Assembly: GCA_016206365.1 (NCBI GenBank)
Contig: JACQRR010000053.1
Coordinates: forward strand, 1 to 33,939
Reading direction: 5' to 3'
From: Candidatus Roizmanbacteria bacterium
Lineage (GTDB): Bacteria; Patescibacteriota; Microgenomatia; UBA1406; GWC2-37-13
Length of the DNA stretch: 33,939 nt
Within the stretch, counting starts at the first letter, position 1. Every line of letters begins with the position of its first letter. The translations under genes were made by a program, and so were the position numbers. Below the pieces are notes generated by a model, which saw only the letters and a program-made list of their open reading frames with translations, was not told the origin of the DNA and searched no databases. Positions 3,576 to 33,939 of the stretch are shown here, piece after piece.

Positions 3576-3600
3576 GTTGGCGGTTATTTCACCTCCAACC
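3575..3600. terminator. Hairpin spanning the stop codons of two convergent genes (possible bidirectional terminator)
   Basis: ggttggcgg (3575-3583) pairs with cctccaacc (3592-3600) with one mismatch around an 8-nt loop. There is no clear U-tract. Confidence 0.3.
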
Positions 3601-6600: not shown

Positions 6601-9600
6601 TCATATCGACCGTAACAACTTCTACCCGGGATTCTTTTCCTGATTGATTAGCGTAACTTATAGGCCTCAACCCTGCATATAGACCAGCTTTATGAACAAT
6701 AAATTCATGTGATGCGGCAATCGATTGATTGCTAATATCATTGACTGTTGCCTCGATAACCATTCGCTGGCTTGTTTTTTGCTTGCTTATATCAAGTGGT
6801 ATAGTGATCTCTAGGTCGCCTTTCTCGTTTGTCTTCCCTTTTCCTTCAGTAACTTTTTCTCCTGAGAAATAACTCTGCCCTGAGTAATCCCACCAAGGCC
6901 TTGACCAATAAGAGTCTGGGTCGCCAAATTCAAAGCGCCAATCTTTATCCCATTGGATAGAGTAGTCTTGCGTTTGCAGCGTCCAGGTCAGAGGAGCGTC
7001 TGTGACTGGAGAGCCGAAATAATAGGAAGAATTTATGGCAATAGTAGCATTTTCACCTTGTAAATAGGTATCCTTTGACGGTTTGACTGTTACGGCCAAA
7101 TCGGGTCGTTTATATTCTTCTACCTGAAATTGTTGCGTGAAAGAATTTCCCTGAAATGTTGATCCGACTTGATAATATCCCAGATTTGCGTCTTTGCTTA
7201 AAATAAACTCTCCTGAAAATGAGCCAAATGTATTGATGGATAAGGATTGCATTGATACTGATTTGTTTTGAGCATCATTTATCGTTACTGAAATCTTCTC
7301 GCCAGGTCGAATATTCTCATAGTCTCCATCGTTATCTTTTCGAATGACTCCCTTAAAGTAGACTTTTTGGCCCGGCCTATAGATGGGCCGATCTAACGTG
7401 AGAAAAAGCTTATAATTTTCTTTTATGTCATACTCTTTGTATTCATCGGGATTGTAGTAGGACGGAAGGCCAAAATCAGATCGATCAATCCCTTGACTCC
7501 AGATATCTGCCGCTATAACTATATCGTCATCTTTTTGGCCAAAGACAAAAAGATTATTTTTTTGAAATAAGTCGACGTCCTTCATAAATACGCCGTCATT
7601 ATTTGTATTCCCTTGAGTAAGCATCTTTCCCGAACTATCCGTTAACTGAATATTCATGTTTGAAATTACATCGTTTGAAGACTGATCTACAGCCCAAGTG
7701 AAAATTTGTTTGGCGCTTTTTTTTACTGTCAAAGTCGATTTGCTTACGATCATGATCATGTTATCATGCGCTCCTTGTGGTATACGCAGATCAAGAAAGT
7801 AAAATCCTGCCGGCAATTTATCGCCGCTATTTGTGGTAACTTTTGTAACTACATGCACAGGGGTGTTTAAGTCTGCTCCATAAGTTTCACCCCAGCTTCG
7901 AATCTTTTCGAGTCTGCCCGCGTCGTAACTCTGCCAATTTTGGCAACCATAATTATTGTTACCGCATTGATTTTCATACCTTCTTCTGTAAAGATCGAGA
8001 AACTCCTCCTTTTTTAATTTGTAGAGAGAGAAGTCAACTCTGTTTGCATTGACAACCTGGGCAACGATGCGGGGGACGACGTTCTGATTAAACGACCCAA
8101 AATAAGTATCTTGAGGGAAAATATTAACCGATGGTTTGTAGGGAGCCGTAGTGAAGGAAAAAGTATATGATGCGTCTAAAGGCACTCCATACTGATCTTT
8201 AACGGCGTGTCCTATCGTGATCGTATAAGTTTTAGATCTTCCCAGATATGTTCCAATTGATAAAGTGTTCGTGTTTTCATAACTTGAAAAATAAAAATTA
8301 GGTTTTGTCTCCGGCTGCGGATCGATCAAAACATTATTTTCAAATGATTCCTCATCCATGGGAGTTCTAAAAACGACTCGGACGCTATGTTCTTCTGAAA
8401 TATTTCTATCTCCATTTTTTGGTGTCGAAGAGACAACCTGAGGTTTTGGAGCAACAGTAAAACTCCAAGTATAACCTGTTTCCATTCCGTTTGGCCCGTC
8501 TGCGCTTTGGACTCCTTGATCAAGCTGTACTCGATAGGATTTTTCTCTCAAAAGAGATGAGGAGGGGTAAAATCCAAAGATCCTTCCGTTTAGCGCAACA
8601 CGGCCGGGTACTCGATTTCCTGAAGCGTCAAGAAGATGGAACTTTTCGATAATTGAGCTTTCATTGACATTTTGGTTAAATATAGCAGAGACAGAGGCCG
8701 TGGGAGAAGCAAACTGCTCATTTTGTAAGGGGCTTACAGCTTCGACATGGGGTCGTTCGCTCGAGAACTCCCAACGATATACATTTTGTAATTTTCCCCC
8801 ATCTTGAGACTGAAGTTCTGGTAGGCTGACGCTATAGGTCGTAGCCTTTTTAAAGGGTTCTGATGGACGGTATTGATAGGCAGTCGTCCCCAGCCATCTA
8901 CCTTCGCCTTCGATCTCTGGATTAAGGCTAAATGCTGGTTTTTTAATTGCGCTATTTGTAGCGGTGGTCAAAGCAATCATCGGGCGATCGAAAACTACCG
9001 TAATAGGAGTGAAGTCTTCCAGCGCTTCATTTTGAGGCGAAGCCAGTACTACCTTTGGATTTCCCAGCGTTTCAAAAGTGATCGTTTTATTACCAATGAG
9101 CGGTACAAAAAAATTTGACAAAACTACTCCTCTAAACGAGATTTTATAGCTGCTTGCTCTACCAAGATTATTTTTGGGAGTAAATACAAGTTTTTGATTG
9201 CCTTCCCAGCTAAAATTGCCAGAAATATTGGGTTTGATGTCAAGGCTGCGTTCAGCTAAGGATTTTATAACGCCTTTGTTAAAGATAATCTCTATTTTTG
9301 AGTCTAATGGCGCTTCAGAGCTCATATTACCTGGGAAAGTTGTTATTATTCTAGGAGGCGTAAAAAGAGGACCAAACTTAATCAATAAAAAAAGTCCAAC
9401 AATGACAACCACTGGTTTTTTAACCATCTGCCAGCGTTTTGGCTTGTCCGCTTGTTTAAACTCTTGCTGCCAACTGAGAAAACGTGTACTCAACTTTGTA
9501 TAGTTTTCTTTCGTATGATGATGTAGGATAGGAAGATTAGCTTCCAGGTATTGTTTTAATCTAGCGATATTTTCTTGTATAGCGGTAAAAAAATTCTTAA

Positions 9601-9613
9601 GATACTTACTCAT
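3584..9613 (-). CDS. Bacterial alpha-2-macroglobulin family protein (YfhM/ECAM-like), thioester-containing, N-terminally membrane-anchored
   Basis: 2009-aa ORF. The thioester motif DYPYYCAEQ is encoded at 5009..5020. There are repeated Ig-like/MG-type beta-rich segments and a C-terminal receptor-binding-like end. A single TM segment (VVVIVGLFLLIKFGPLF) follows about 65 cytoplasmic residues. It lies directly downstream of pbpC. Confidence 0.9.
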   Translation of the reverse strand: MSKYLKNFFTAIQENIARLKQYLEANLPILHHHTKENYTKLSTRFLSWQQEFKQADKPKRWQMVKKPVVVIVGLFLLIKFGPLFTPPRIITTFPGNMSSEAPLDSKIEIIFNKGVIKSLAERSLDIKPNISGNFSWEGNQKLVFTPKNNLGRASSYKISFRGVVLSNFFVPLIGNKTITFETLGNPKVVLASPQNEALEDFTPITVVFDRPMIALTTATNSAIKKPAFSLNPEIEGEGRWLGTTAYQYRPSEPFKKATTYSVSLPELQSQDGGKLQNVYRWEFSSERPHVEAVSPLQNEQFASPTASVSAIFNQNVNESSIIEKFHLLDASGNRVPGRVALNGRIFGFYPSSSLLREKSYRVQLDQGVQSADGPNGMETGYTWSFTVAPKPQVVSSTPKNGDRNISEEHSVRVVFRTPMDEESFENNVLIDPQPETKPNFYFSSYENTNTLSIGTYLGRSKTYTITIGHAVKDQYGVPLDASYTFSFTTAPYKPSVNIFPQDTYFGSFNQNVVPRIVAQVVNANRVDFSLYKLKKEEFLDLYRRRYENQCGNNNYGCQNWQSYDAGRLEKIRSWGETYGADLNTPVHVVTKVTTNSGDKLPAGFYFLDLRIPQGAHDNMIMIVSKSTLTVKKSAKQIFTWAVDQSSNDVISNMNIQLTDSSGKMLTQGNTNNDGVFMKDVDLFQKNNLFVFGQKDDDIVIAADIWSQGIDRSDFGLPSYYNPDEYKEYDIKENYKLFLTLDRPIYRPGQKVYFKGVIRKDNDGDYENIRPGEKISVTINDAQNKSVSMQSLSINTFGSFSGEFILSKDANLGYYQVGSTFQGNSFTQQFQVEEYKRPDLAVTVKPSKDTYLQGENATIAINSSYYFGSPVTDAPLTWTLQTQDYSIQWDKDWRFEFGDPDSYWSRPWWDYSGQSYFSGEKVTEGKGKTNEKGDLEITIPLDISKQKTSQRMVIEATVNDISNQSIAASHEFIVHKAGLYAGLRPISYANQSGKESRVEVVTVDMKGKEVANTPVSIEFYKRTWETIREKNPDDGLFYYTSKPNDTLVSSTTVTTDSLGRATASFTPSEGGTYKVVGKVSDKNGNQNLSGSFLWVSGLGFSAARENNDRIVVVTDKRDYLVGENLSVFVASPYASDSAKTLLTAERGSVLDYKVVDIDNTSNNFSMSIPPKYTPNVFIGAVLIRGGNQVKKPAEFKIGYAEIKVTDKKQQVDVRITTDKKRYKPKETLRATIETKDLLGHPISAELAVGLVDKAVWDLSLVELPDIYKTFYQPRNLEVETSQLLTISLDRVNANTDLGAKGGSGGGGDGGSDTSRRDFPETAYWNPSLKTDKDGKASVEIKLPDNLTTWRLAAIANSQDASFGSKVSEVITSRDVLIRPFLPRFLSVGDQAKLGAIIVNTSGEDQTITAKIEEEGIQITDGKTKQQVLADGAQTKITWSTIAKNAASAKIKLSVEGSDKRLRDALEMTLPIKSYSIPEVVATAGEAKDTAQEKIVLPKAVDTTQGQTSIVFSPSLGSASFNALAYLFDYPYYCAEQITSRFMPAVFVQRILKNAKIDKNGLIDSRQLEQVINDSIQRLNNQQHPDGGWGWWQENESDPFLTAYAFLGLFEAKKDKFTVADQTLQRAQTYLVNQLARGKKEVSLNTQAYILYVLRGRGINMSSYAANLFERRFELSLESRAYLVLAMKDISGMGDRAKRLFNELISLAKKTATTTHWEEPKRDYYFMGSNTSTTASILEALVGFDKKNPLIPEVVRYLMSIRTDNHWASTRDTAAVIKAISSQLLSRADQRVDENYRLALNGKILKEGKFTKDDLFKLEQYVISISQLNIGGENKLQISKSGQGNLYYDVNLKYYLPFSEIKPLEQGIVVVREFVDSQGKTLPMDTIFENTEVWVRLIIVTPEERRFVVIEDILPAGLESVNESLKNVSALNKESPSLKEKGNQLLYFGHKEYHDDRTTLFANYLPPGVYEVTYRVRATTPGRYHHPPAQAYQMYIPDISGHSEGGWLEVK

Positions 9614-14861: not shown

Positions 14862-15054
14862 GTGGACAAGCTTCAAAATAATTTAAACCAGATTGAGGAG
14901 TATATTTGGAGGTGGTATCATACAATTAAGAATCTTAACTTTAAGAATGTGGCAAGCACTGGTTGAGGATTTCCGAACAGCAAACTGGGCTCAACTGGTA
15001 CCTTATCCAGAGATAGTTTATCAGAAAACTCACCAATTTCTTCAGTCAAGTTGA
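14862..15054 (+). repeat. Repeat unit A: mini-ORF F1 (14862..14966, GTG start, 34 aa) overlapping mini-ORF F2 (14947..15054, 35 aa, +1 frame)
   Basis: F1 is VDKLQNNLNQIEEYIWRWYHTIKNLNFKNVASTG. F2 is MWQALVEDFRTANWAQLVPYPEIVYQKTHQFLQSS. Homologous copies lie at 30996..31200(-), 32244..32348(-) and 17415..17593. Confidence 0.6.
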
Positions 15055-17414: not shown

Positions 17415-17593
17415 TCAAAAAGTTCCAAACTCATTTCCATCAACCAATTTTGCGAGAATAGCGTCTATTTCGTGAAGTTTCTCAAGGTTTTTGTCCACGA
17501 TGAGATTATATCAAATCTAAATGGGTGGAAATCGTCCAATATCCTGAAGTAGTTTATCAGAAATCTATGCAGTTTCTACATTCGTTCGCCTAG
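17415..17593. repeat. Repeat unit in the DGQHR-gene leader: F1-like mini-ORF on the minus strand (17415..17498) and an F2 copy on the plus strand (17519..17593)
   Basis: The minus strand reads GTGGACAAA... and encodes VDKNLEKLHEIDAILAKLVDGNEFGTF (27 aa), ending 38 nt before the DGQHR ATG. The plus strand encodes KWVEIVQYPEVVYQKSMQFLHSFA, homologous to the F2 tail NWAQLVPYPEIVYQKTHQFLQSS at 14983..15054. Confidence 0.55.
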
Positions 17594-18995: not shown

Positions 18996-19274
18996 CTAAT
19001 CCCGAAGAGGACTTAAGATATTTTTCAAAGTTCTTTTAAGCTCTTCTTTTAATTGCTTGCGACCAAATCCACTCTTCAAAAATTTTTCTCTAGATGATCC
19101 TGAAATGGAAGATAAAATTTTAAGGTGATTATACAGAAATGTTCGTTGCGGAAAATATTTTCCTCCTCTTGCTGAAATAAAAAGGTTAGGATTAAAAAAA
19201 GAAGAAGCAAGACAAATAAATGTTTTAACGATGTTAGAAAAGGTTAGTAAAGACTTAACAAAAAGGTATAGAAA
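18996..19274 (-). pseudogene. Degenerate GIY-YIG family gene remnant (no start codon)
   Basis: The open frame has 92 sense codons between stops and no ATG/GTG/TTG near its 5' end. The C-terminal part, REKFLKSGFGRKQLKEELKRTL, matches the C-terminus of the intact GIY-YIG gene at 22289..22618. The upstream part (ARGGKYF, NPNL) matches only loosely. Confidence 0.55.
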
Positions 19275-20530: not shown

Positions 20531-20923
20531 TTAAGAAATCGAGGAAAGTAATTTTATTATTTTTCTGTCGAATGTAGCAAAATTTTCAATTTTATTCTTT
20601 AACGCGAAAGAAATATTATAACAGTCCTCAAACTCAACAGTAACTTGTCTATAAATTTCTAAGGCTTTATATAAAAGGTCTCTTTCTTCAAGTTTAAGAA
20701 AAGTCATATCCAAAATTCTTTGAATAATATCGATTTTTTCATTTTTGCTGATTTTATAGGTGCTTCCTAAAACCCACATTACCTCAAATATGACAAGAAC
20801 AGAAGTAAGCAATTTTTTTTCACCTTTGGATCCGTCCACAAATAAATCCGTAGCCTTCTTATGTTGCATACTACCATCATCAAGAAGATAGCGCAGGAAA
20901 TAATTTGTATCTACAAATATCAT
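20531..20923 (-). CDS. vapC: PIN-domain toxin (VapC family)
   Basis: 130-aa ORF starting MIFVDTNYFLRYLL with conserved acidic positions (D5, E46-like, D-x near the C-terminus). It overlaps the upstream antitoxin gene by 4 nt. Confidence 0.8.
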   Translation of the reverse strand: MIFVDTNYFLRYLLDDGSMQHKKATDLFVDGSKGEKKLLTSVLVIFEVMWVLGSTYKISKNEKIDIIQRILDMTFLKLEERDLLYKALEIYRQVTVEFEDCYNISFALKNKIENFATFDRKIIKLLSSIS

Positions 20924-21174
20924 TTTTTGTATTTTCTTTTAAAGTGCTCTTTTTTGGATTTTTTGATTATTTTTTCTAATTCTTCGTCAGTTAATTTTTT
21001 AGAAGATTTAATTGCGCCAGCTAAACTGCGTACAAGAACCTCTGCTGGGGTCAACAAAATGCTTTCGCCTTTTTTTTCAGCCAATAGATGATCTCCTTTC
21101 GCAATTCCTAATTCATTAAAAATCTTACTAGGTATAGTAATTTGTCTTTTGCTTGATATCCTTACAGTTTGCAA
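20920..21174 (-). CDS. vapB: AbrB/SpoVT-type antitoxin (VapB-like); start uncertain
   Basis: VRISSKRQITIPSKIFNELGIAKGDHLL is a SpoVT-AbrB swapped-hairpin motif. The track ORF runs to 21279 and would overlap the smpB start on the other strand. TTG at 21174, preceded by tataat, gives an 84-aa product of typical size. Confidence 0.7.
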   Translation of the reverse strand: MQTVRISSKRQITIPSKIFNELGIAKGDHLLAEKKGESILLTPAEVLVRSLAGAIKSSKKLTDEELEKIIKKSKKEHFKRKYKK

Positions 21175-21177
21175 TAT

Positions 21178-21206
21178 AGTAAGGAAATTATATAAAAGTA
21201 AGGAAA
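21178..21206. promoter_or_regulatory. Direct 10-mer repeat in the vapB/smpB divergent region (possible antitoxin operator)
   Basis: agtaaggaaa occurs at 21178-21187 and 21197-21206. A tataat (minus strand) lies between the repeats and the putative vapB start. Confidence 0.3.
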
Positions 21207-21240
21207 CATCTGTCAAGCGCAATTTGATAAAATTGGAATA

Positions 21241-21690
21241 ATGAAAATATTCAATCGTAAATTCCGGCGCGATTATCAAGAAATTGAAAAATATGAAGTT
21301 GGTATTGCCTTGACCGGTGCCGAAGTAAAATCAGTTAGAGCTGGTCGGATCAAACTTGAGGACAGTTTTGTCAAAATTCTGGGTTCAGAGGTATATCTTT
21401 TAAATGCGGAAATTCCTATCTATGAATATGCAAGACCACAAGGCTACGATTTGCGAAGGACGAGAAAATTGCTCCTGCATAAGAGGGAAATTATCCGCTT
21501 AAAAACAAAGCTTGCCTCGGCTGGTAAGTTGACAATCGTGCCTATTGCATGTTATAATAAGGCTAGTTTGATCAAGCTTGAGATAGCTTTGGCCAAAGGC
21601 AGAAGAAGCCCGGAAAAGAAAAAATTGGAGAAGGCCAGAGATGTAAAAAGACAAGAAGAAAGAGAAGCAAAAGAATATTTGAAAAGTTAA
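21241..21690 (+). CDS. smpB: SsrA-binding protein SmpB
   Basis: 149-aa ORF. N-terminus KIFNRKFRRDYQEIEKYEVGIALTGAEVKSVR...KLEDSFV, central RTRKLLLHKREI and a basic C-terminal tail are all characteristic of SmpB. It lies directly upstream of the tmRNA. Confidence 0.93.
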   Translation: MKIFNRKFRRDYQEIEKYEVGIALTGAEVKSVRAGRIKLEDSFVKILGSEVYLLNAEIPIYEYARPQGYDLRRTRKLLLHKREIIRLKTKLASAGKLTIVPIACYNKASLIKLEIALAKGRRSPEKKKLEKARDVKRQEEREAKEYLKS

Positions 21691-21815: not shown

Positions 21816-22211
21816 GGGGATGAAAGGAATCGACGGAATGCATGCACTTTCAAAAATTGGTAGAGCGCACCTGTGCGTTAAACGGAAAAACTTTAATTGC
21901 TGACGAAAGAGATGCAATTGAAGCTTCGAGGTACAGCCGATTTGCTTTTGCGCAAGCACCAGCTTATCAAGCTTACAACTAAGCTTCCTCTGGTTAAGTT
22001 TCCCTTAGTTCAACTTAATTAAGAGATAAACCAATTAAGGTAAGGTTTTATAGGATTCCCGATGGACTATAAAATCGATAAAACCTCATCGGCTTCCCGA
22101 TCAGTTTTGTTTATTTTCTAATCGGGAAAGAGCTAAAAATAATCTATCTCTACCTAAACATTTTTAAAAAGGCCCTTCCGGACCCGGGTTCAACTCCCGG
22201 CATCTCCACCA
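21816..22211 (+). ncRNA. ssrA: tmRNA (ssrA)
   Basis: The 5' end ggggatgaaaggaatcgacgg pairs with the 3' end catctcc + acca. The T-arm is cccgggttcaactcccgg. The 3' segment ggacccgggttcaactcccggcatctccacca closely resembles canonical tmRNA 3' ends. It is adjacent to smpB. Coordinates are +/-1 nt. Confidence 0.92.
22192..22210 (+). repeat. attL-like core: the 19 nt of the tmRNA 3' end that are duplicated at 31183..31201
   Basis: aactcccggcatctccacc is identical at both sites in direct orientation. Confidence 0.85.
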
Positions 22212-22288: not shown

Positions 22289-22618
22289 ATGGAAACGTCT
22301 GACGTTTCCGTCGCGTCATACGCGACAGATATAGCTAAATATAAATCTTCAATAAAAGAAAGGTTTTATGTATATATTTTCTACTCACTAAAAGATCATG
22401 GTTTATATATAGGATTCTCCCCAAACCTAAAAGTGCGATTAATTAAACACGCTAAAGGACAGGTAATTTCTACCAAATTAAGAAGACCATTGCAATTAAT
22501 TCACTACGAATACTCTATTAATAAAGCAGACGCCAAAGCACGTGAAGAATTTCTTAAAAGTGGATTTGAAAGACAACAACTAAAAGAAGCTCTAAAAAGA
22601 ACTTTGAAAAAAGTTTGA
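22289..22618 (+). CDS. Small GIY-YIG nuclease family protein
   Basis: 109-aa ORF. FYVYIFYS..GLYIGFSPNLKVRLIKHAKG...AREEFLKSG is the GIY-YIG core. The 25-aa N-terminal extension overlaps two hairpins (22291-22309, 22310-22327), so the start is uncertain. Confidence 0.8.
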   Translation: METSDVSVASYATDIAKYKSSIKERFYVYIFYSLKDHGLYIGFSPNLKVRLIKHAKGQVISTKLRRPLQLIHYEYSINKADAKAREEFLKSGFERQQLKEALKRTLKKV

Positions 22619-22676
22619 ATAAACTTTGTTTGCTACTGTCCACCAAAAGATTTAAATAGTTATAACAATCTATATG

Positions 22677-23780
22677 TTATTTAAGATTTGCCTCTAAATA
22701 TTGCCTGACAAAATCAGCATCTTGTTGAGAGATATTAGCAGAAACAAGTAAAGTTTCTACTTGCTGTCTTCTTGTTGCGGGGGTTTGCCCGACAGTTTCT
22801 TGAAGGATTTTCAGTAATACGGGGTACTGTTGTTTAAGATGTGGTGCGAGTGTACGCAAATCAGCTCTTCTAGTTATTTCAGCCGCTCTTTTTACAACTT
22901 CAGTTTTTAACTCATCAATATTTACACGTCCGAATCTTAAATCGCGAATAAATGCTAACTTTTTTACTCTATCGGAGTATTTTCCCTTTATATCCTTTGG
23001 TTTTATAGAAGCAATTTCTTCATCCAATTGTCTTAAAAAATCATTTTGTGACATTTCTCCTTGGTAATTTCCTAAATGGGCAACGACATACTCTTGAAAA
23101 TCATTCAGGCTTAATGGGGTCCATTGTTGGATTTCACTGGCATGCTGTCTCAAATATTCTGGAATATATTCTGAAGGCATTCTTCCTTGTGGACCAACTA
23201 AAAATCTTTCCAAATGATCTACATCTCTCGGACTAAAATCTCCTGAAGCGATTAAATCTTGAGCATAGCGAATAATCGCTTCTCGATACCGTTCTCTTAT
23301 GTCATTATGTGCTGAAAAATATAGAGGCTCTTTAATTCCACTCCATGGCCCACCTTTTCCTCCGGTATCTAGAGCGGCTAATTCTGAATGCTGTTTAATA
23401 TAATCTGCTATGAACTGGTTTTGATGAAATCTTTCAGATATTGCTGCAACATAGGGTTCGATATTCATTAGTAATGAATTTTTTGCCAAAAAAGCAATCC
23501 TATTAAATATTTCCGCATTCAAGTCAGGATCAGACATATGGTCTTCAAGATACTTTGTGTATGCATCGCCTAGTTCAATAACTTGATCTGCTTTTTGATT
23601 GAAAACATGATTCTCATTTCCTAGCTTTTGTTCAGCTAACGCTTTTTGCGTTGCCGAACTTATTTTTTTTAGTCTGGTAATAACTCTGTTTTTATCATCC
23701 TGGGGTCTTTCTGCGGCTATTTGTTGAGCTTCAGTTGCAGGATTTGGAGAACTCAATTCGGGCACAGTGGGTTCTTGCAT
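22677..23780 (-). CDS. Hypothetical protein
   Basis: 367-aa ORF with a disordered, Pro/Gln-rich N-terminus and a helical remainder. No domain was recognised. Confidence 0.6.
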   Translation of the reverse strand: MQEPTVPELSSPNPATEAQQIAAERPQDDKNRVITRLKKISSATQKALAEQKLGNENHVFNQKADQVIELGDAYTKYLEDHMSDPDLNAEIFNRIAFLAKNSLLMNIEPYVAAISERFHQNQFIADYIKQHSELAALDTGGKGGPWSGIKEPLYFSAHNDIRERYREAIIRYAQDLIASGDFSPRDVDHLERFLVGPQGRMPSEYIPEYLRQHASEIQQWTPLSLNDFQEYVVAHLGNYQGEMSQNDFLRQLDEEIASIKPKDIKGKYSDRVKKLAFIRDLRFGRVNIDELKTEVVKRAAEITRRADLRTLAPHLKQQYPVLLKILQETVGQTPATRRQQVETLLVSANISQQDADFVRQYLEANLK

Positions 23781-23856
23781 GAAATTAATACTACTATACT
23801 CTGGAAAAGTTTTCTATAAATTGTACATAAATGTTCTATCCGCAGTTAGTAAATAA

Positions 23857-23931
23857 AAGTTATAAACTTCGTCAGATATTAGTCAACGTCTGACTTCAGT
23901 CAGCTGCAGAATTGTACCTGACTTCGTTCGC
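23857..23931 (+). repeat. 75-bp direct repeat R1 (left flank of the AbiEii-like pair)
   Basis: aagttataaacttcgtcagatattagtcaacgtctgacttcagtcagctgcagaattgtacctgacttcgttcgc matches R2 at 72/75 positions. It contains several gtcag/ctgac inverted repeats. Confidence 0.85.
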
Positions 23932-23979
23932 CATCTTACATTAATAGTCTTTAAGAGCTTTTTTTGCTAGAATACTAAC

Positions 23980-24231
23980 ATGTCAGTAAACGATATCGTC
24001 AAAAATAAACCTTATCTTGCTTGGTATGTAAAAAATCCCGAAGTTCTTTCAGAACAGTCTGTACTAGAACACGTACTTAATTATGGCGACTGGGAAGATG
24101 TGCAGTTATTTATTAAAATTAAGGGTCAAAAGGAAACGGCTGAATTGTTCAAAAAATCCCTAGCCAATAAAAGAACTAATTATCTTCCAGCAATCAAAAA
24201 TTATTTTATTCGCTATTTTAATTTCTTATGA
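23980..24231 (+). CDS. Small protein, putative cognate antitoxin/partner of the downstream nucleotidyltransferase
   Basis: 83-aa ORF whose stop overlaps the next start (ATGA, 24228-24231). No domain was recognised. The role is inferred from the operon arrangement only. Confidence 0.5.
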   Translation: MSVNDIVKNKPYLAWYVKNPEVLSEQSVLEHVLNYGDWEDVQLFIKIKGQKETAELFKKSLANKRTNYLPAIKNYFIRYFNFL

Positions 24232-24839
24232 AAATCCAGGTCTTAAACGACGATCAAAAAGAATTGCTACCTTTTATTAAGTCCTTTTCATCTGATTTTT
24301 ATCTGGTTGGCGGAACAGCCGTCGCCCTTCATCTCGGCCATCGGAGATCAATTGATTTTGATCTTTTTACCGATAGCTCTTTTGATCCGGTAAAGTTCCG
24401 AAACAGAATAAATTCACTGCAAAAAATCGGGCATACATTTTCTCAAGGCGAAGGCGAACTGACCGTGCTTGTAAGAAATGTTAAGTTAACTTTTTTTCAT
24501 TATCCGTTTAAGATAGAAGGGAAAACGAATTTCGATGATACCATTACCATGCCGGATCTTATAACGCTTGGGTCTATGAAGGCATTTGCTCTAGGCAGAC
24601 GTGCCAAATGGAAAGACTATGTCGATCTATATTTTATTTTAAAAAGATACTCGTTTACTAATTTAATGAATACAACCAAGAATATTTTTAAAAATGAATT
24701 TAACGAAAAACTATTCCGCACGCAACTTGCTTATTTTGACGATATTGATTATTCGGAAACAATTGACTACATGGAAGGATTTAAGAGGAATGACGATGAA
24801 ATTAAAAACTACTTAGAAGAAATAAGCTTATCGAAATAA
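24228..24839 (+). CDS. Nucleotidyltransferase of the AbiEii/AbiGii toxin family (short form)
   Basis: 203-aa ORF. FYLVGGTAVALHLGHRRSIDFDLF matches the GGTAL..R.S.DIDxF signature of AbiEii-type NTases. Confidence 0.7.
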   Translation: MKIQVLNDDQKELLPFIKSFSSDFYLVGGTAVALHLGHRRSIDFDLFTDSSFDPVKFRNRINSLQKIGHTFSQGEGELTVLVRNVKLTFFHYPFKIEGKTNFDDTITMPDLITLGSMKAFALGRRAKWKDYVDLYFILKRYSFTNLMNTTKNIFKNEFNEKLFRTQLAYFDDIDYSETIDYMEGFKRNDDEIKNYLEEISLSK

Positions 24840-24869
24840 TATATCCAAGCTAATTTAGAGATTTTATAG

Positions 24870-24944
24870 AAGTTATAAACTTCGTCAGATATTAGTCAGC
24901 ATCTGACTTCAGTCAGGTGCAGAATTGTACCTGACTTCGTTCGC
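24870..24944 (+). repeat. 75-bp direct repeat R2 (right flank of the AbiEii-like pair)
   Basis: 72/75 identical to R1. It is followed by tattgtccacagtaaatttag, which resembles gcttgtccaccagtaaattttag at 32339-32361. Confidence 0.85.
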
Positions 24945-25003
24945 TATTGTCCACAGTAAATTTAGTTCTTTTAAATAAATTGAACTAATACAATTTCTAA
25001 AGT

Positions 25004-25693
25004 TTATACTTTTCTATTTGTCCATCTTGAATATATGGCATGAGATACCATGGTTGGTGGATTGATTTCGGAGTCAATACATGTCCAAGTATTTATTCGC
25101 CCCAGTAAAGCTAATTGGGTGATTACCGCTGGATAAAGATTTGCTATTCTTTTTAAATTTTCAATAGATTCATGATAGTCAGAAGTTGTTTTACGCTTAA
25201 CTCTTAAACTGGCAGTTTCAGGAGAAACAGTTAGTAAAACAACATCATCAACAATTCCTTTTCCGCCGACTGCTTCCACCATGGAAACAATCGCTCTAGA
25301 AGGAATACCTCCTAACCAGTAAAAATGACTCATAATCACGGAATCTATTTGACGATGTCTATCTTGAACTAAATAGTCTGGATCGTAGTTTTTAATTATA
25401 TAAGGCTCTATTACTCTTCCTTGAACAAAAATATGACTTAGAAATGCAGCGAAAAGTGCTAAAGGATTATGATGTTCTTGCCCATTTTCATAAAGCGCGA
25501 GAACTTTGGAAGCAAGATCTGGAAATAAAACTGTTTGTTCACCTCTCCGAACAACATATGAAGGTTCGCTTAACGAAGCGAGAACGCCAATACTAAATGT
25601 TTTACCCAACATACTTGCAACTGCATGAACCGTAGTAGTTTTACCAGAACCATCTATGCCAGTGACGCTTGCTTTATAAATTTTTTCACTCAT
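25004..25693 (-). CDS. Thymidylate-kinase-like P-loop NTPase
   Basis: 229-aa ORF. The Walker A motif is VTGIDGSGKTTT. A DRH...S..M segment and LLTVSPETASLRVKRK resemble the DRY and lid regions of dTMP/dNMP kinases. Divergent. Confidence 0.55.
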   Translation of the reverse strand: MSEKIYKASVTGIDGSGKTTTVHAVASMLGKTFSIGVLASLSEPSYVVRRGEQTVLFPDLASKVLALYENGQEHHNPLALFAAFLSHIFVQGRVIEPYIIKNYDPDYLVQDRHRQIDSVIMSHFYWLGGIPSRAIVSMVEAVGGKGIVDDVVLLTVSPETASLRVKRKTTSDYHESIENLKRIANLYPAVITQLALLGRINTWTCIDSEINPPTMVSHAIYSRWTNRKV

Positions 25694-25703
25694 ATTTTCG
25701 GAA

Positions 25704-26225
25704 TTACTTTTTCACACGATTTTTACTAAAAAGATAAATATTATAAGGTAGTTGGGCAACTAGACTTATTGTTATATCGCTAACTCTTTGAGCTAAGGCA
25801 ATAGTTGGATCACCTGTTAAGATACTAACAATACTGGAAATAGGAGCAGTGGGATCTGGATTAATACCAACAACATTCATTAATACTGTTCCTATTTCAG
25901 CTGCAATAGCATTAAATTCATGACGTTGAGGAAATGCGAATGTTAAACCACGATAAAGCGTATTTGCTTTAGCTGATCCACCAACTTTATCTCTTCGCAA
26001 AACATAATAATCTAATCCGGCAGAAGCTAAACTAAAAAGAGCATAAGCCGCGATACCTAAAGGTACTAATTCTGGATTCTCTTTCATCTTTTCACTAATT
26101 AATACTGTCCCAGCCGAATTTGCTGCAGATAATGGTAACTTACCTAAAAGTGCAACACCAAAACTACCCAAAAACGGTGTCCACTCACCTCTTTTGGGTA
26201 TTGCTACTTTTATTCTTTCTCGCAT
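25704..26225 (-). CDS. Small integral membrane protein
   Basis: 173-aa ORF with about 4 hydrophobic segments, 10 nt upstream of the kinase-like gene on the same strand. Confidence 0.55.
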   Translation of the reverse strand: MRERIKVAIPKRGEWTPFLGSFGVALLGKLPLSAANSAGTVLISEKMKENPELVPLGIAAYALFSLASAGLDYYVLRRDKVGGSAKANTLYRGLTFAFPQRHEFNAIAAEIGTVLMNVVGINPDPTAPISSIVSILTGDPTIALAQRVSDITISLVAQLPYNIYLFSKNRVKK

Positions 26226-26337
26226 ATGAATAAGCTAAAAGTATAACTAGAAATTATAACAAATAGCCTGTGAAAAATTTTTTATACCCCACTCTACAGG
26301 TAATAGTATCTGATTAATTAATCAATTAACATACACT

Positions 26338-26439
26338 AAAGCACGTGAAAAATTCCTAAAAAGTGGATTTGGCAGAAAACAACTAAAAGAAGCTTTGAAA
26401 AGAACCTTAAACTTTCCAAACATAGAGAAACTAAGTTAG
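26338..26439 (+). pseudogene. 3' fragment of a second GIY-YIG gene
   Basis: It encodes KAREKFLKSGFGRKQLKEALKRTL... and aligns without gaps to about 75 nt of the intact gene (22535..22609) with roughly a dozen mismatches (hand count). An in-frame stop lies immediately upstream (26326-26328). Confidence 0.7.
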
Positions 26440-28018: not shown

Positions 28019-29206
28019 ATGACCAAAGTTAAAATCAATTTCAGGGGTAAAACTGTATTAATATCTTCTGACGTTTTAAGATGGGCAAGAGAAAGTATTG
28101 GAATGAGTTTAGAGCTTACTGCAAAGAAACTTAAAGTTAATGAAGGGATACTTGCTGACTGGGAAAGAATTACCTCGCCCATTCCTTTAAGTAGATTCAA
28201 ACTATTTTCTAAAGTTTATAAGCGTCCTTCTGCAGTTTTTCTATTGGATAAACCCCCTATTGAAAAACTTCCCTCTGAATTTAGAAGACATATGGAAGAA
28301 AAAAGAGTTGAGTTTACAACTAATACTTTTTTAGCAATAAGAAAAGCAAAAAGAATACAACAGACTTTTCTTGAACTTTCAGATAAAGAAGAAAATCCAT
28401 TCATTAAAAAATTAATAGCTTTTGAGAAATATAATGATCCAGAGCTAGTTGCAAGTAAAGTAGCTATATTACTAGGTCTTGACTATAAGAATATTTTAAA
28501 AACAAAAGACACTTTTACTCAATTAAAAATCTGGAAAAAAATACTTGAGTCCGTAAATATATTGGTTATTGAGCTTAAATTTAATCCCTACGAAGCTCGT
28601 GCGTTTTCTTTATATGATAAATATACTCCATTGATCGTCTTAAGCACGCAAGATCATCCTTATGCTAGAATTTTTTCATTGGCGCATGAACTAGGGCATT
28701 TTATATTCAAGTCAAATGGAATTGATATAGATTCAGATTTCAATCAAAAAAAAGAAGATAATTATTTAGAATACTTTTGTAATTACTTTGCCGGATCCTT
28801 GCTCGTTCCTAAAAATGAATTAGCGGTAATAATTAAAAACAAGGGATTTGATCGTAATAGATTTCAAGAAGAAGATTATTTAAATTCTGTTTTGTTACAG
28901 TTAAGCTCGCAATTTCAAGTGAGCACCCAAGTAATACTCCGTAGACTTTTAATTAATAACTTCATTTCTTCGGACAATTTTACTATTAAACATAAACAAT
29001 TGATTTCAAAAAAACAAATTTACAGAAAACCAATTGGAGCAGGAAATTATTACGTAAATGTGATTAAAAATTTCAGCCATCTATTTATAAGTAAACTACT
29101 TGAAGCACATAACGAAAATAAGATAACTCACTATGACTTGTTAAATTATTTAAATATTAAGAGCGAAAATGTTCCTAAATTAGAATCAAAACTTTTGCAT
29201 TATTGA
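28019..29206 (+). CDS. XRE-type HTH fused to an ImmA/IrrE-family (M78) zinc metallopeptidase
   Basis: 395-aa ORF. The N-terminal LRWARESIGMSLELTAKKLKVNEGILADWER fits an HTH. SLAHELGHFIF is the HEXXH motif in the ImmA/IrrE context. Confidence 0.85.
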   Translation: MTKVKINFRGKTVLISSDVLRWARESIGMSLELTAKKLKVNEGILADWERITSPIPLSRFKLFSKVYKRPSAVFLLDKPPIEKLPSEFRRHMEEKRVEFTTNTFLAIRKAKRIQQTFLELSDKEENPFIKKLIAFEKYNDPELVASKVAILLGLDYKNILKTKDTFTQLKIWKKILESVNILVIELKFNPYEARAFSLYDKYTPLIVLSTQDHPYARIFSLAHELGHFIFKSNGIDIDSDFNQKKEDNYLEYFCNYFAGSLLVPKNELAVIIKNKGFDRNRFQEEDYLNSVLLQLSSQFQVSTQVILRRLLINNFISSDNFTIKHKQLISKKQIYRKPIGAGNYYVNVIKNFSHLFISKLLEAHNENKITHYDLLNYLNIKSENVPKLESKLLHY

Positions 29207-29207
29207 C

Positions 29208-29681
29208 ATGCTAAATATTAATTCAAAAGCAGGATATTCTGTTGATTCAAGTTTCTTCATTCAATTAAAAAATAATGTTCCAATAAATCACTATCCATCC
29301 GTTTGGAATAAGATTAAAGATTATATTGATAGTGGTAGATTTATATCTCCTCAACCTGTCTATGATGAATTAATGAAACGTAGTGATGATCTAAACAAAT
29401 GGTTAAGCAAAAATAAAGATACAATGTTTACTCCCATTGATGATTTACTGGAATTAACGAAACAAATCTCAAAAGATTACAGTGATTTAATTGAATCTAC
29501 CTCTGACACAGAAGTTGCTGATCCATATGTTATAGCACTTGCAATAAAAGCAAGGAGAAATGTTTTGACAATTGAAAGTAAATTGGGAAAAGTTAACATT
29601 CCATATGTTTGTGATCAAATGAATGTGCCGTGCGTTAAAAAATTAGGAGAGTTTTACGTAGTAGAGAATTGGAATATCTAA
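29208..29681 (+). CDS. DUF4411 family protein (PIN-like predicted nuclease)
   Basis: 157-aa ORF. YSVDSSFFIQL, YPSVWNKI, VYDEL, DLNKW, VADPYVIALA and VNIPYVCDQMNVPCV follow the DUF4411 pattern. It starts 1 nt after the ImmA stop. Confidence 0.8.
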   Translation: MLNINSKAGYSVDSSFFIQLKNNVPINHYPSVWNKIKDYIDSGRFISPQPVYDELMKRSDDLNKWLSKNKDTMFTPIDDLLELTKQISKDYSDLIESTSDTEVADPYVIALAIKARRNVLTIESKLGKVNIPYVCDQMNVPCVKKLGEFYVVENWNI

Positions 29682-31024: not shown

Positions 31025-31200
31025 GAAATTGGTGCTCGTTATTTGAGTAATAGTTCTTTACATAGTCAACCAGAGCCAGTCAGAGCTATTTTGTTACTTT
31101 CTAGAATGTAATACCATCTCCAAATATAACTCTCTATTTCCTTAAAATTCTTTGATATGTTTTCTTTTAGCTGATTTGAAGAAACTCCCGGCATCTCCAC
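30996..31200 (-). repeat. Repeat unit B: F1 (31066..31200) overlapping F2 (30996..31079, +1 frame), abutting the attR-like tmRNA fragment
   Basis: F1-B is VEMPGVSSNQLKENISKNFKEIESYIWRWYYILESNKIALTGSG. F2-B is LALVDYVKNYYSNNEHQFLKISFENLK. The +1 frame relation is the same as in unit A. The first codons of F1-B are the reverse complement of the tmRNA 3' end. Confidence 0.6.
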
Positions 31201-31201
31201 C
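31183..31201 (+). repeat. attR-like 19-bp direct copy of the tmRNA 3' end
   Basis: aactcccggcatctccacc is identical to 22192..22210. The flanking bases differ on both sides. Confidence 0.85.
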
Positions 31202-31270
31202 TGAAGATTTAGATTAATATAACAATCTAGATATACATATACACTACTCACATTTTTAATTATCCTAATC

Positions 31271-31311: not shown

Positions 31312-32226
31312 ATGCCAGCCAGATCAGAACATCCTCAAGCCATTATCGGAGGAACGGGATTTTCCGAATTTGCTTCAGACTTTCAAATAATACTTACCGA
31401 TTACGGAGATGTGCGTGTTGGGCACCTTGAGCTTGGAGGTAAGGAAGTATTTTTCCTATCACGGCACCAACAACTAGAAGCTCCTCATTTAGTTAATTAC
31501 CGGGCAAATATGCAGGCACTGAAACTTCTTGATGTTAATACGATATTTGCCGTGAGCGCTTGCGGAAGATTAGCTCAAGATGTTCTCCCTGGTCATCTTG
31601 TTGGAGTAGACGATATTGATTGGGATGATGCTGGTTCTAGACCGTCTACATTTGTTGAGCCGGGATTACTTTTACATGCCTCGACAAATGAATTATTTAG
31701 TCCCGGATTAAGAACCATCTTGGCTGAATCTTGGGAAGAGGTGGAACCCGAAGTAGCTCAATTATATGATGGAACACAATTAGCGGTTGGTTACCATGAC
31801 GGCGGCACTTATTTTAATATTAATGGGCCTGCTTTTACTCCACCACATCGAGAAGCCAGATTACGTAGACAAACTGAAGATTCTAAAGTCATAGGAATGA
31901 CGCTCTTTCCAGAGACTCATTTAGCTAGAGAGATGGCGATGGCATATGCGGCAATTGGTATGTGTGTTGATCATTCCAATTTTCCGGGTGCTCCTCCAGT
32001 ATCACACGCAGAAGGAGTAATGGTAGCAGTACAAAAAACTGCACAAGCCGCATATAAGCTGATAAATCGAGCAACTAAAAATACACCTAATGATTTTTAT
32101 GATGTAGTCGCTCACGGTGCTTTTAAAAACTCACTCTTCCCGGGTCAAGTTGATTTTGATCGTTTAAAAGGAAATGGAAGAACAAATCTTGCGTTTATTT
32201 TAGATAATGCCTTAAAAAGTCAATAA
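31312..32226 (+). CDS. mtnP: S-methyl-5'-thioadenosine phosphorylase / purine nucleoside phosphorylase family
   Basis: 304-aa ORF. AIIGGTGF, FFLSRH, VNYRANMQALKLLDV, GPAFTPPHREARL, VIGMTLFPETHLAREM and CVDHS follow the MTAP/PNP (PNP_UDP_1) pattern. Confidence 0.75.
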   Translation: MPARSEHPQAIIGGTGFSEFASDFQIILTDYGDVRVGHLELGGKEVFFLSRHQQLEAPHLVNYRANMQALKLLDVNTIFAVSACGRLAQDVLPGHLVGVDDIDWDDAGSRPSTFVEPGLLLHASTNELFSPGLRTILAESWEEVEPEVAQLYDGTQLAVGYHDGGTYFNINGPAFTPPHREARLRRQTEDSKVIGMTLFPETHLAREMAMAYAAIGMCVDHSNFPGAPPVSHAEGVMVAVQKTAQAAYKLINRATKNTPNDFYDVVAHGAFKNSLFPGQVDFDRLKGNGRTNLAFILDNALKSQ

Positions 32227-32243: not shown

Positions 32244-32348
32244 TTAAATACTCTCACGCGGTATAGATAGCTTTAAGCTGCGAAGTAAAGGATACCACCT
32301 CCAAATGTATTCTTCAATCTGGTTTAAACTATTTTGGAGCTTGTCCAC
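32244..32348 (-). repeat. Repeat unit C: F1 mini-ORF copy (34 aa, GTG start)
   Basis: It encodes VDKLQNSLNQIEEYIWRWYPLLRSLKLSIPRESI. The first 57 nt are 52/57 identical to unit A, and 4 of the 5 differences are synonymous in this frame. The length matches F1-A. Confidence 0.6.
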
Positions 32349-32417: not shown

Positions 32418-33602
32418 ATGTCTTATCAAGATAGAGGACGTTTTATCTCTCAATGGGAAGCTGGCATAAATCCTTTGTCCCAATTTGAGCAGAGCTTCGA
32501 AGGAACTCGCAAAGTCTTTCATAAACCTCTTTCTGCAATTTATCAAGCTCTTTTTCAAAAAGAATTAGCTAGAGGAGATATTTTAGCTTTAGGTATTGGT
32601 ACTGGACAGGTAGAAGAAATGGCTCGAGTAGACTCGCGTCGAATTAGAGCAATTGATGTTTCAATAGGTTTTTTAAATAAAGCAAGAACTAAATTACCAA
32701 AAGCTCATTTTCATCAAGGAAGAATACAAGATGTATTGCCTTCATTAGATCATCATTCCTTAGCATTTTCTTCAGATGCTCTTGACTGTATCAATCCTTT
32801 AGAACTCGGTGAGGTCTTATCACTTATTCGGAAAAAGACAGACAAATTAGTGATAGCTCAGGTTTTTATGCCAGATGATGAATTTTATTCATTTTACTTT
32901 CCACGTCCAGGAATTGGGTCTCATGGAGGACCAGGTATTGATGGTTGGAACCAAGATCAACATACTGCAGCAGAGCAGCATTTAAATAATTTAAGAATAA
33001 TTAGTCCAATAAATCAACCTGATTCTCTTTTAAAAGAAGTTCAAGCTGCAGTTCATTCTAAATTTAACTCAGAAATAAAAGGTGATATGGTAGATTTACT
33101 TGATAGTATCGGTTTCCAGTTTAGAACAATGCCACAAATACGGAATCATCGAGCTTATGCATCTGAAGTGGATCTATTTCTGGAATATATTGCAGATTAT
33201 ATCGGAAAAATGAGAGAGAACGTTCTTCCTCGACGACCTCAACCTCAAGAAGTTGCTAAATATGTTGCTGTTCATACTATACATAGACTTTCCCAGCTTT
33301 TTCACGGAACAATTCAGATGGAGCTTTTTTTCAAAACCTTTGAGGATGCTTGTTTGAAGGCAGGTTTTACAAATATTCAAAGAAAAGCTCTGGCAGCAAG
33401 TGGAGATAGAATTGTTAATGATCCGAAAATAATAGAAAACGTTAATCGATCTCTACTTGCTTCAACTCAATTGGAAATACCTGCTTCACATATAGATCAT
33501 ATTAATAGTGGCTCGTTTACAAATGGTGCGGCTATGACATTCTTTGAACCTCAATCTAATCCTTTTAACGATGCTCGTGTTCAATATTTAGTTGCTTCTT
33601 AA
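32418..33602 (+). CDS. Class I SAM-dependent methyltransferase-like protein
   Basis: 394-aa ORF. DILALGIGTGQVEEMA fits the glycine-rich SAM motif I, followed by IRAIDVS (acidic motif II-like). The long C-terminal extension is unassigned. Confidence 0.5.
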   Translation: MSYQDRGRFISQWEAGINPLSQFEQSFEGTRKVFHKPLSAIYQALFQKELARGDILALGIGTGQVEEMARVDSRRIRAIDVSIGFLNKARTKLPKAHFHQGRIQDVLPSLDHHSLAFSSDALDCINPLELGEVLSLIRKKTDKLVIAQVFMPDDEFYSFYFPRPGIGSHGGPGIDGWNQDQHTAAEQHLNNLRIISPINQPDSLLKEVQAAVHSKFNSEIKGDMVDLLDSIGFQFRTMPQIRNHRAYASEVDLFLEYIADYIGKMRENVLPRRPQPQEVAKYVAVHTIHRLSQLFHGTIQMELFFKTFEDACLKAGFTNIQRKALAASGDRIVNDPKIIENVNRSLLASTQLEIPASHIDHINSGSFTNGAAMTFFEPQSNPFNDARVQYLVAS

Positions 33603-33832
33603 ATATTCAGAAATTTAAAATTTATCTGATCTTTATAAGTTAAATAATAATTATAAACTTCGTCCGCTGTGCTCCACATACCGCCAGACGCTATATTTAT
33701 CTAGTTTTACGTGACAGATCACTCTTAAAAAGTTTTTATTTAAAAAAGTAGAAGTTAACCGCACAAATTACTGTAGGAGTCGATAGAAACAAAGATTGTA
33801 TTTATATCTTTGAACTAGGAAATTACAATTTG

Positions 33833-33862
33833 AATAAAAGTTATAAACATCATTCGCTAGAG
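33833..33862 (+). repeat. Short copy of the R-repeat ends (aataaaagttataaac ... cattcgctagag)
   Basis: The 16-mer aataaaagttataaac is identical to 23852-23867. The following catcattcgctagaga resembles the ttcgttcgcctagaga end at 17581-17596. Another ttataaacttcgtc lies at 33651-33664. Confidence 0.45.
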
Positions 33863-33939
33863 AAGTTTTTGAAATTCTTTAGGAGCGAGTTTAATTAGAT
33901 ATTAAAAAGAAGGTATAACTATATTACTGATACTTACCA

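Follow-up and report, generated by a model that had tools for sequence, protein, structure and literature searches.

A putative AbiEii toxin–antitoxin cassette between composite direct repeats in a tmRNA-linked array of Candidatus Roizmanbacteria

The stretch of DNA considered here (the window) comprises 33,939 nucleotides, positions 1 to 33,939 of contig JACQRR010000053.1 of a Candidatus Roizmanbacteria bacterium (assembly GCA_016206365.1). Our subject is a two-gene unit resembling a toxin–antitoxin (TA) pair, which lies between two direct repeats, R1 and R2, downstream of the gene for transfer-messenger RNA (tmRNA); coordinates are collected in Table 1. The second gene encodes a 203-residue nucleotidyltransferase of the AbiEii family (Pfam PF08843, E 5.6e-10; PADLOC AbiEii, E 2e-6), the putative toxin. 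The 83-residue product of the first gene, the putative antitoxin, matches no family in Pfam, NCBIfam, PADLOC or PHROG and is not AbiEi; its AlphaFold model is all-alpha (pLDDT 91.8), and comparison of the model with the PDB gave no fold match at E<2 and none that is DNA-binding. The two open reading frames (ORFs) overlap by 4 nt, and R2 begins 30 nt past the toxin stop codon.

R1 and R2 are identical at 72 of 75 positions, the differences being A/G at 23886/24899, G/A at 23888/24901 and C/G at 23904/24917, with a start-to-start spacing of 1013 bp and a longest identical run of 29 nt; once two further mismatches are admitted, the unit lengthens to 82 nt at 94% identity (23853-23934 and 24866-24947). 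An earlier note on this DNA, made by reading the sequence, had described the two copies, their three differences, the 1013-bp unit and the enclosure of exactly two overlapping genes, and all of this is borne out, as are the nested GTCAG/CTGAC inverted repeats that it saw within each copy. These fold as two hairpins beside a small AAGTT-ATA-AACTT hairpin, with folding energies of -28.5 kcal/mol for R2 (z -4.4) and -18.5 kcal/mol for R1 (z -2.6); the G/A difference preserves a pair (U.G versus U-A), and the C/G difference disrupts one in R1. Two sub-patterns of R (18–26 nt) occur exactly twice each in the window, where shuffled sequences would give 0, and R is present at full length in the window as these two copies only. 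No further copy was found in the GTDB representative genomes or JGI metagenomes with a pattern of the hairpin part, exact or flexible. The note had also remarked that the end of R closes another sequence, its F2 copy; TTCGTTCGC is indeed present at 17581-17589, and such a lone 9-mer match is not significant. An assembly artefact peculiar to one dataset can be dismissed for R1 and R2, since independent Logan assemblies of two other runs, SRR12113419 and SRR12113422, contain the identical sequence including all three differences. We note that four Logan contigs from two other samples (L001-L004; sequences used for comparison carry L numbers throughout) end inside R, at window positions 23858/23887 and 24917-24929. 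The identity of R1 and R2 does not explain these breaks, because the longest common run (29 nt) is shorter than k=31, and those samples may contain further copies resembling R, or other alleles.

The repeats are composite. Their backbone is a box of about 40 nt, AAAAGTTATAAACTTCGT-TCGCT..GTCCACA, interrupted after ACTTCGT by a 48-nt double-hairpin insert and a 7-nt duplication. The left arm of the box is AAAAGTTATAAACTTCGT; the right arm, TCGCT..(G/C)TCCAC(C)A, closes with a copy of the last 7–8 nt of the tmRNA, whose terminus reads ...CATCTCCACCA, and in R2 it runs on to 24955 and ends in GTCCACA. A box profile made exclusively from copies in other genomes and then run on the window matches the left arm of R1 (profile positions 3-23), the left arm of R2 (8-23) and the right arm of R2 (17-38, at 24934-24955), and matches the right arm of R1 weakly. 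It also matches three uninterrupted boxes, the one at 22606-22645 with an E-value of 7e-6, and every match is on the plus strand, downstream of the tmRNA gene. Because profile positions 17-23 (ACTTCGT) are matched twice in each repeat, the hairpin segment is best described as an insertion bordered by a 7-nt duplication. Removal of 55 nt from R (the insert 23873-23920 with one ACTTCGT) leaves AAAAGTTATAAACTTCGTTCGC, and uninterrupted boxes of this type are seen at 33644-33679 and 33833-33859, with a diverged version at 22606-22645. Different short inserts occupy the same position of the box in other genomes (L096_3568/L091_6355, L105 and L144). The 75-nt unit, which the earlier note suggested could be an att-like junction, is a box into which 48 nt of hairpin sequence are inserted and not a single att site.

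The closest relative of the TA cassette, that of L005, has a toxin 90% and a partner 97.6% identical to those of the window and a different left context. Homology between the two starts at 23932, directly after R1, and reaches into the box of R2 up to the end of the L005 contig, and box-like sequence lies on both sides of the L005 cassette. Upstream of its genes L005 is without the GTCAG/CTGAC palindromes; conserved there between L005 and the window are the 48 nt that separate R1 from the start codon.

The boxes of the window follow one another in the order 22606, 23852 (R1), 24870 (R2), 33644 and 33833, all on the plus strand, in an array anchored at the tmRNA gene. About 9 kb downstream of that gene is an exact copy of its 3' end (22192-22210), and the genes between are of TA, defence and unlabelled function, with no integrase seen. 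The flank behind the first box, 22646-22675, recurs behind the tmRNA-end copy at 31202-31232 (about 80% identical, family D7). From its sequence, the interval between the tmRNA gene and 31183-31201 looks like a decayed island or a set of tandem cassettes at ssrA. At the far end of the array only 190 bp separate the boxes 33644-33679 and 33833-33859, and this interval, which has no ORF, may be a cassette that was emptied or has decayed. The last box abuts the stop codon of a reverse-oriented hicA toxin remnant (33857-33937, minus strand; …APKEFQKLL*, with an in-frame stop upstream), and a reverse-oriented hicA stop abuts the right end of a box in five genomes: the window (33857), L088, L105, L108 and L090. 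Over 50 nt the 3' end of the remnant with its adjoining box matches the hicA end of L088 at 88% identity; in L088 the stop is replaced and the ORF continues for 11 codons through box sequence.

Table 1. Positions of the repeats, boxes and associated genes in the window
Feature	Position	Strand	Basis or remark
tmRNA gene, array anchor	21816-22211	+	Rfam, ARAGORN
Uninterrupted box ending TCCACCA, overlapping the GIY-YIG stop codon	22606-22645	+	profile
R1, putative left junction repeat of the TA cassette; box with hairpin insert	23857-23931	+	profile matches 23852-23872, 23921-23935
ACTTCGT, copy 1 of the 7-nt duplication	23866-23872 (R2: 24879-24885)	+	sequence; profile positions 17-23 matched twice
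48-nt double-hairpin insert	23873-23920 (R2: 24886-24933)	+	absent from solo boxes
ACTTCGT, copy 2 of the 7-nt duplication	23921-23927 (R2: 24934-24940)	+	sequence; profile
TA cassette body (938 bp)	23932-24869	+	promoter-like region, partner gene, toxin gene, 30-nt tail
83-residue partner, putative antitoxin	23980-24231	+	all-alpha; family searches negative
203-residue AbiEii-family nucleotidyltransferase, putative toxin	24228-24839	+	PF08843, PADLOC
R2, putative right junction repeat	24870-24944	+	profile matches 24870-24885, 24934-24955
19-nt exact copy of the tmRNA 3' end, attR-type repeat	31183-31201	+	exact match
Uninterrupted box (…CCGCTGTGCTCCACA)	33644-33679	+	96% over 28 nt to a Roizmanbacteria 40_13 box
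Uninterrupted box, right end abutting the stop of the reverse hicA remnant	33833-33859	+	profile

Boxes of the same kind are found in other Roizmanbacteria. A search of GTDB, one genome per species, with the exact 18-mer AAAAGTTATAAACTTCGT gave 23 stretches, about 14 of which are single matches in unrelated phyla without the remainder of the box; of the others, six are exact matches on one contig of Roizmanbacteria 40_13, and the rest are in Roizmanbacteria 35_13 and two other Patescibacteria. A phage origin was considered and rejected, as the two viral contigs that match the 18-mer are without the remaining box and look like chance, and a wider family that would merge the box with a 'AAAAAGTTCTAAC..CTTCG' motif that follows genes in other Roizmanbacteria is suggestive in its resemblance and is not relied on here. 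The 40_13 contig (RIFCSPLOWO2_01_FULL_40_13, 96 kb) has its tmRNA gene at 33283-33679 on the minus strand and exact boxes, likewise all on the minus strand, at 32101, 31479, 27568, 26266, 22355 and 16062, so that 6/6 exact copies of the 18-mer in this genome are on the tmRNA strand and no more than 17.6 kb downstream of the tmRNA 3' end. Between the window and 40_13, SmpB is 83% identical in amino acids and tmRNA 76% in nucleotides, and the boxes are 96–100% identical. Downstream of the tmRNA gene the boxes are all that the two genomes have in common, the cassettes being entirely different. Cargo between boxes includes GIY-YIG, a PIN pair, CopG, Phd/YefM, HicAB, the AbiEii pair and an RmrA-like/DUF4411 pair, as well as genes of ordinary appearance, among them those for an ABC transporter and for Kelch and leucine-rich-repeat proteins. 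The box thus borders GIY-YIG, hicA, PIN, CopG and non-TA cargo as well, and R is not, as the earlier description might suggest, specific to the TA pair.

The L numbers L090 and L105 denote contigs 52 and 26 of Roizmanbacteria 35_13, and L136 is a metagenome contig; comparison of the three places a breakpoint at the box. L136 has 199 nt and a box that are 100% identical to L090, then GTG and CTCCACCA, and then 427 nt that are identical in all 427 positions to the sequence immediately after the tmRNA gene in L105. In 35_13 the tmRNA gene is directly followed by this flank, with no box, and the left sequence and box of L090 lead into another right partner. The breakpoint falls just after TTCGCT; 8 nt are common at the join, and 3 nt of L136 are in neither partner, so a k-mer chimera is an unlikely explanation of L136. 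L136 and L105 are an occupied and unoccupied pair, belonging to a sister lineage and not to the TA cassette of the window, and in that lineage the box sits at a real rearrangement breakpoint. The sequence after the tmRNA gene begins with CTTCGT or CTTCGC in L089, L105 and L106, and in L108 the terminal box of the array is followed by GTCCACCA and tmRNA-flank-like sequence.

The TA family itself is widespread. Homologues of the toxin number in the thousands, nearly all in Patescibacteria, and the 83-residue partner is encoded alongside in 83 of 86 loci. Significant direct repeats of 21–151 nt, 85–100% identical and unrelated in sequence between loci, tightly flank the TA pair in at least 14 of 80 loci from different species. 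When a direct repeat of at least 30 bits within 300 nt on each side was scored, 12 of 75 TA loci had one; among other gene units, comparable in size and likewise aligned on their gene boundaries, it was 1 of 99 (p 2e-4), and with shifted mock positions as the control the counts were 7/40 real and 5/237 mock (p 3.6e-4). In L083, L068, L086, L023 and L014 the repeat consists of the last 12–33 codons and stop codon of a neighbouring host gene, with the orphan copy across the TA pair; these host genes include those for an amidase, Trp/Tyr-tRNA synthetase and a VanW protein. Of the seven differences between the copies in L083, six fall on third codon positions. L038 has three copies of a host gene start, which set apart an AbiEii pair, an MNT/HEPN pair and the host gene itself, and the two orphan copies are closer to the allele of a related genome, L035, than to L038's own gene. 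The third-position differences and the allele likeness suggest donor-derived flanks, and from the loci compared the TA family is a mobile cassette that occurs in many contexts across the phylum. Proximity to tRNA genes is not above expectation: 9 of 60 loci have a tRNA gene at a distance of up to about 2 kb from the TA pair. We note that in three related genomes of Roizmanbacteria type (L010, L013 and L053) the homologous pair is 0.05–2.2 kb downstream of a co-oriented tRNA-Tyr gene, and that box-like motifs lie between the two in L013 and partly in L010, which may be a second array anchored at an RNA gene. L008 and L009, two related genomes, share a 964-bp TA block, 94% identical, that starts at a palindrome, TTATCTTATCGACGRCCGTCYACAAGATAA; in L009 this element is present once more, together with an extra 344-residue gene, after the TA pair, another cassette-like indel.

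From their sequences, then, R1 and R2 are two copies of the junction element of a tmRNA-linked cassette array, and we think it probable that they are att-type junctions of an AbiEii TA cassette of about 0.94 kb in a tandem, integrase-less array anchored at tmRNA. The earlier note had offered att-like junctions of a mobile TA cassette as one of its possibilities, and it is this possibility that the box family, the copy of the tmRNA terminus, the sister-lineage breakpoint and the repeats around the TA family favour; the recombinase, solo R site and circular junction that would complete it were not found. Small accessory cassettes would be stacked in tandem on the 3' side of the tmRNA gene, and recombination at the junctions would add or remove them, the crossover taking place in the tmRNA-end-like core. 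Since the arrays encode no recombinase, it would have to be supplied in trans. In addition, RecA-type recombination could act on R1 and R2, which are 96% identical over 75 nt, and release the TA pair as a loop with one R; the resulting circle could re-insert at any solo R. TA pairs are addictive, a property that opposes their loss, and the pair would in this way select against its own removal.

Several observations weigh against this interpretation. Scans of ORFs against Pfam, PHROG and PADLOC revealed neither an integrase nor any other recombinase, whether in the window or in the arrays of L090, L091, L096, L106 and L108. No solo-R empty site, hybrid R or circular junction was found for the TA cassette of the window, in collections that hold no close relative: the flanking TMK-like protein has six homologues only, all at most 59% identical and in loci with different gene content, and look-ups of the exact flanking proteins yielded nothing beyond short Logan contigs that repeat the sequence of the window without a difference. 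Downstream of R1 the core-like sequence (CATCTTACATTA) is degenerate. Some boxes follow ordinary-looking genes (for an ABC transporter, Kelch and leucine-rich-repeat proteins), and in 40_13 they are mostly 9–55 nt past a same-strand stop codon, a placement that also fits an RNA element at 3' ends. In 35_13, three boxes lie on a contig tile of 8 kb that has no tmRNA gene, and one box is upstream of the tmRNA gene in the opposite orientation. Finally, in a simple crossover at the core the flanking arms would come from different elements, and the presence of a 48-nt insert in both R1 and R2 is unexpected; because the two carry the same insert an extra assumption is required, which could be a circle with a full R recombining at a resident R, a single R having undergone long target duplication, or gene conversion.

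The second of these assumptions can also stand as an account in its own right, in which incoming DNA, most plausibly acquired by natural transformation, inserted illegitimately or with the help of homology into a single R and duplicated 75–82 nt of it, the box having no role in recombination. It explains the 48-nt insert common to R1 and R2 directly, and it draws on the unrelated local direct repeats (21–151 nt) around the TA family in 12–14 other genomes, which often cover the start or stop of a host gene, and on the third-position pattern of L083 and the allele pattern of L038/L035, which suggest donor-derived flanks. Insertion with long target duplication has been described for restriction–modification gene complexes (Nobusato et al. 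2000; Furuta et al. 2010, PMC2853133), where the same pattern is seen in mostly naturally competent species (PMC2853133). The locus shares with those cases an addiction-type pair, a long direct repeat (>30 bp; here 75–82 nt) and the absence of mobility genes inside, and the TA family shares with them variable local repeats, often over start or stop codons, and hosts that are thought to be naturally competent. The cargo here is a TA pair, however, the hosts are Patescibacteria, and the repeat of the window belongs to a recurrent junction family; for TA pairs or Patescibacteria we found no description of such insertion in the literature. Target duplication leaves unexplained the boxes at many other cassettes, their co-oriented clustering downstream of the tmRNA gene and their ending in a copy of its terminus; in L005 the TA cassette stands in another context and has box-like sequence to its left and right, and no empty site is at hand for the window locus. 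We regard it as unlikely as a full explanation, and note that it overlaps in part with the att-type junction reading, for which it could be the origin of the duplicated junction element.

Explanations that give R no part in mobility fare less well. As an element acting at the level of RNA or transcription (a stabiliser of 3' untranslated regions, a terminator or a small RNA) that is present in two local copies, R would account for the position of R2 behind the toxin gene and of the 40_13 boxes behind same-strand stops, for folding that is better than that of shuffled sequences in both repeats, and for the pair kept by the G/A difference. However, a pair in R1 is lost through the C/G difference, no gene on the same strand precedes R1, hicA cassettes adjoin the box in reverse orientation, and the breakpoint defined by L136, L090 and L105 falls at the box. 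Nor did the searches lend positive support to the regulatory or small-RNA alternative that the earlier note had left beside att-like junctions: the hairpins of R have no T run (U-tract) after them, with 0 terminator-like sites in 22600-25800, so an intrinsic terminator was rejected; the tmRNA is the sole match in the window at Rfam gathering scores, and an E-value search of 23700-25100 gave one chance match to a miRNA; a tRNA-like element was likewise rejected, ARAGORN finding the tmRNA only. The note had further conceded that R might be one of many ubiquitous repetitive extragenic palindromic (REP) or terminator-like elements. The exact copies are restricted to tmRNA-linked arrays, all six of 40_13 being in one array of 17.6 kb, and do not follow genes genome-wide, and full R occurs twice in the window and is absent from the collections searched; we have accordingly set aside a dispersed repeat of the REP, bacterial interspersed mosaic element or miniature inverted-repeat transposable element type, and consider the RNA-element explanation improbable. 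Still less credit is due to the idea that R1 is the operator of the TA operon, its palindromes bound by the antitoxin in autoregulation of the AbiEi style, with R2 as a second operator for looping. R does have two inverted-repeat pairs, upstream of the operon in the case of R1, and AbiE operators reportedly have paired inverted repeats, in work ascribed to Hampton et al. in 2018. The operon of L005, with its near-identical partner and similar toxin, lacks the upstream palindromes, and on this ground the operator reading was rejected as very improbable; what is conserved is the 48-nt stretch that separates R1 from the start codon, and the partner, which is not AbiEi, is a small all-alpha protein in which no DNA-binding fold can be recognised.

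Among known systems the nearest are islands at tmRNA genes. Tandem ssrA islands, cis-mobilizable elements (CIMEs) and an accretion–mobilisation model are reportedly the subject of Williams's 'Traffic at the tmRNA gene' of 2003 and of work by Pavlovic et al. of 2004. As in tmRNA islands and CIMEs, the array of the window starts on the 3' side of the tmRNA gene and consists of tandem, co-oriented units with TA and defence cargo; as in tmRNA islands, direct copies of the tmRNA 3' terminus are found at junctions (19 nt at 31183-31201, 7–8 nt in the right arms of boxes) and occupied and unoccupied tmRNA sites are seen in sister genomes (L136 and L105). R1 and R2 flank the TA genes only, with no integrase or transfer genes of their own, which is CIME-like. 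Unlike tmRNA islands, however, the units are tiny (0.2–6 kb, the TA cassette being 0.94 kb), the extra arm of the box, AAAAGTTATAAACTTCGTTCGCT, is more conserved between genomes than tmRNA, the core copy is 7–8 nt and some boxes are away from tmRNA; and unlike autonomous tmRNA islands, the window and the arrays examined have no integrase. The array would thus seem to differ from known cases in its very small units, in having no recombinase in or beside the arrays, and in a junction arm conserved above tmRNA.

A second comparison is with integron arrays and clusters of attC sites lacking integron integrases (CALINs), in which TA cassettes are also common where the integron is chromosomal. The likeness includes co-orientation, short conserved boundary sites with a variable hairpin-forming centre, and many TA cassettes, some reversed, and neighbouring sites are nearly identical, as are the Vibrio cholerae repeats (VCRs) of integrons. 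It is a superficial one: unlike attC, the box has no RYYYAAC/GTTRRRY core sites and no end-to-end imperfect palindrome, and because its left arm AAAAGTTATAAAC is not complementary to the right arm TCGCT..TCCACA an attC reading was rejected. Neither IntI nor attI was found, and the anchor is tmRNA. We nevertheless entertain, as a somewhat doubtful extension of the att-type junction reading, an integron-like platform at tmRNA, in which a recombinase acting in trans would use the box of about 40 nt, with its core resembling the tmRNA terminus, to stack and exchange very small TA, defence and accessory cassettes, R1-TA-R2 being one such cassette, captured between two identical sites; as a candidate for that recombinase one might speculatively name the small GIY-YIG protein whose gene adjoins that of tmRNA in the window and in L089. 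The TA pair itself resembles AbiE, a type IV TA system, in its AbiEii nucleotidyltransferase toxin and in the overlapping two-gene operon with the small gene first. AbiEi antitoxins have a winged-helix N-terminal domain and a C-terminal domain and are about 200–300 residues long; unlike them, the putative antitoxin here is an 83-residue protein, all-alpha in its model, with no similarity to AbiEi (COG5340).

A number of other features of the window are of note. The small GIY-YIG nuclease gene (22289-22618) lies directly after the tmRNA gene, a position similarly filled in L089, and in 40_13 occupied by an 84-codon ORF with no Pfam match and 35% tblastx identity to the GIY-YIG of the window; two remnants of GIY-YIG 3' ends, 79–84% identical, are at 26330-26411 (plus) and 19021-19088 (minus). 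A helix-turn-helix and M78 peptidase gene at 28019-29206 (RmrA-like in PADLOC, of ImmA/IrrE type) is followed by a DUF4411 gene at 29208-29681, and the two look like another two-gene TA or defence module in the same island. Just upstream of smpB (21241-21690) are genes for a PIN-domain toxin and a MazE/AbrB-type antitoxin (20531-20923 and 20920-21279, minus strand). A second family of intergenic repeats comprises 14862-14919 and 32291-32348, which are inverted relative to each other (58 nt, 91%), and 31111-31153; it contains ACCA(C/T)CTCCAAAT, recalling the tmRNA end, and ...GCTTGTCCAC. One of its copies is just upstream of the 19-nt tmRNA-end repeat and one is inverted 17 kb away, and these may be junction remnants. 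On the minus strand, 3584-9613 holds a very large ORF of 2009 residues followed by one of 804 residues.

The Patescibacteria, or candidate phyla radiation (CPR), have tiny genomes with few recognisable mobile elements and almost no genetics. The results point to a concrete route by which defence and TA genes may be gained and lost in these bacteria, and one that leaves a recognisable mark in the sequence; what we take to be decisive sequence evidence for recombination at the box comes from the sister lineage. Should the box prove to be an element of 3' ends only, the finding would shrink to an ordinary local duplication around a TA pair. As it stands, a box near tmRNA appears to mark the sites at which cassettes are swapped, and it is more conserved between genera than tmRNA, with wholly different cargo in related genomes. 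The box would therefore provide a search handle for the variable gene pool of the CPR and for the responsible recombinase, and may be useful for CPR genetic tools.

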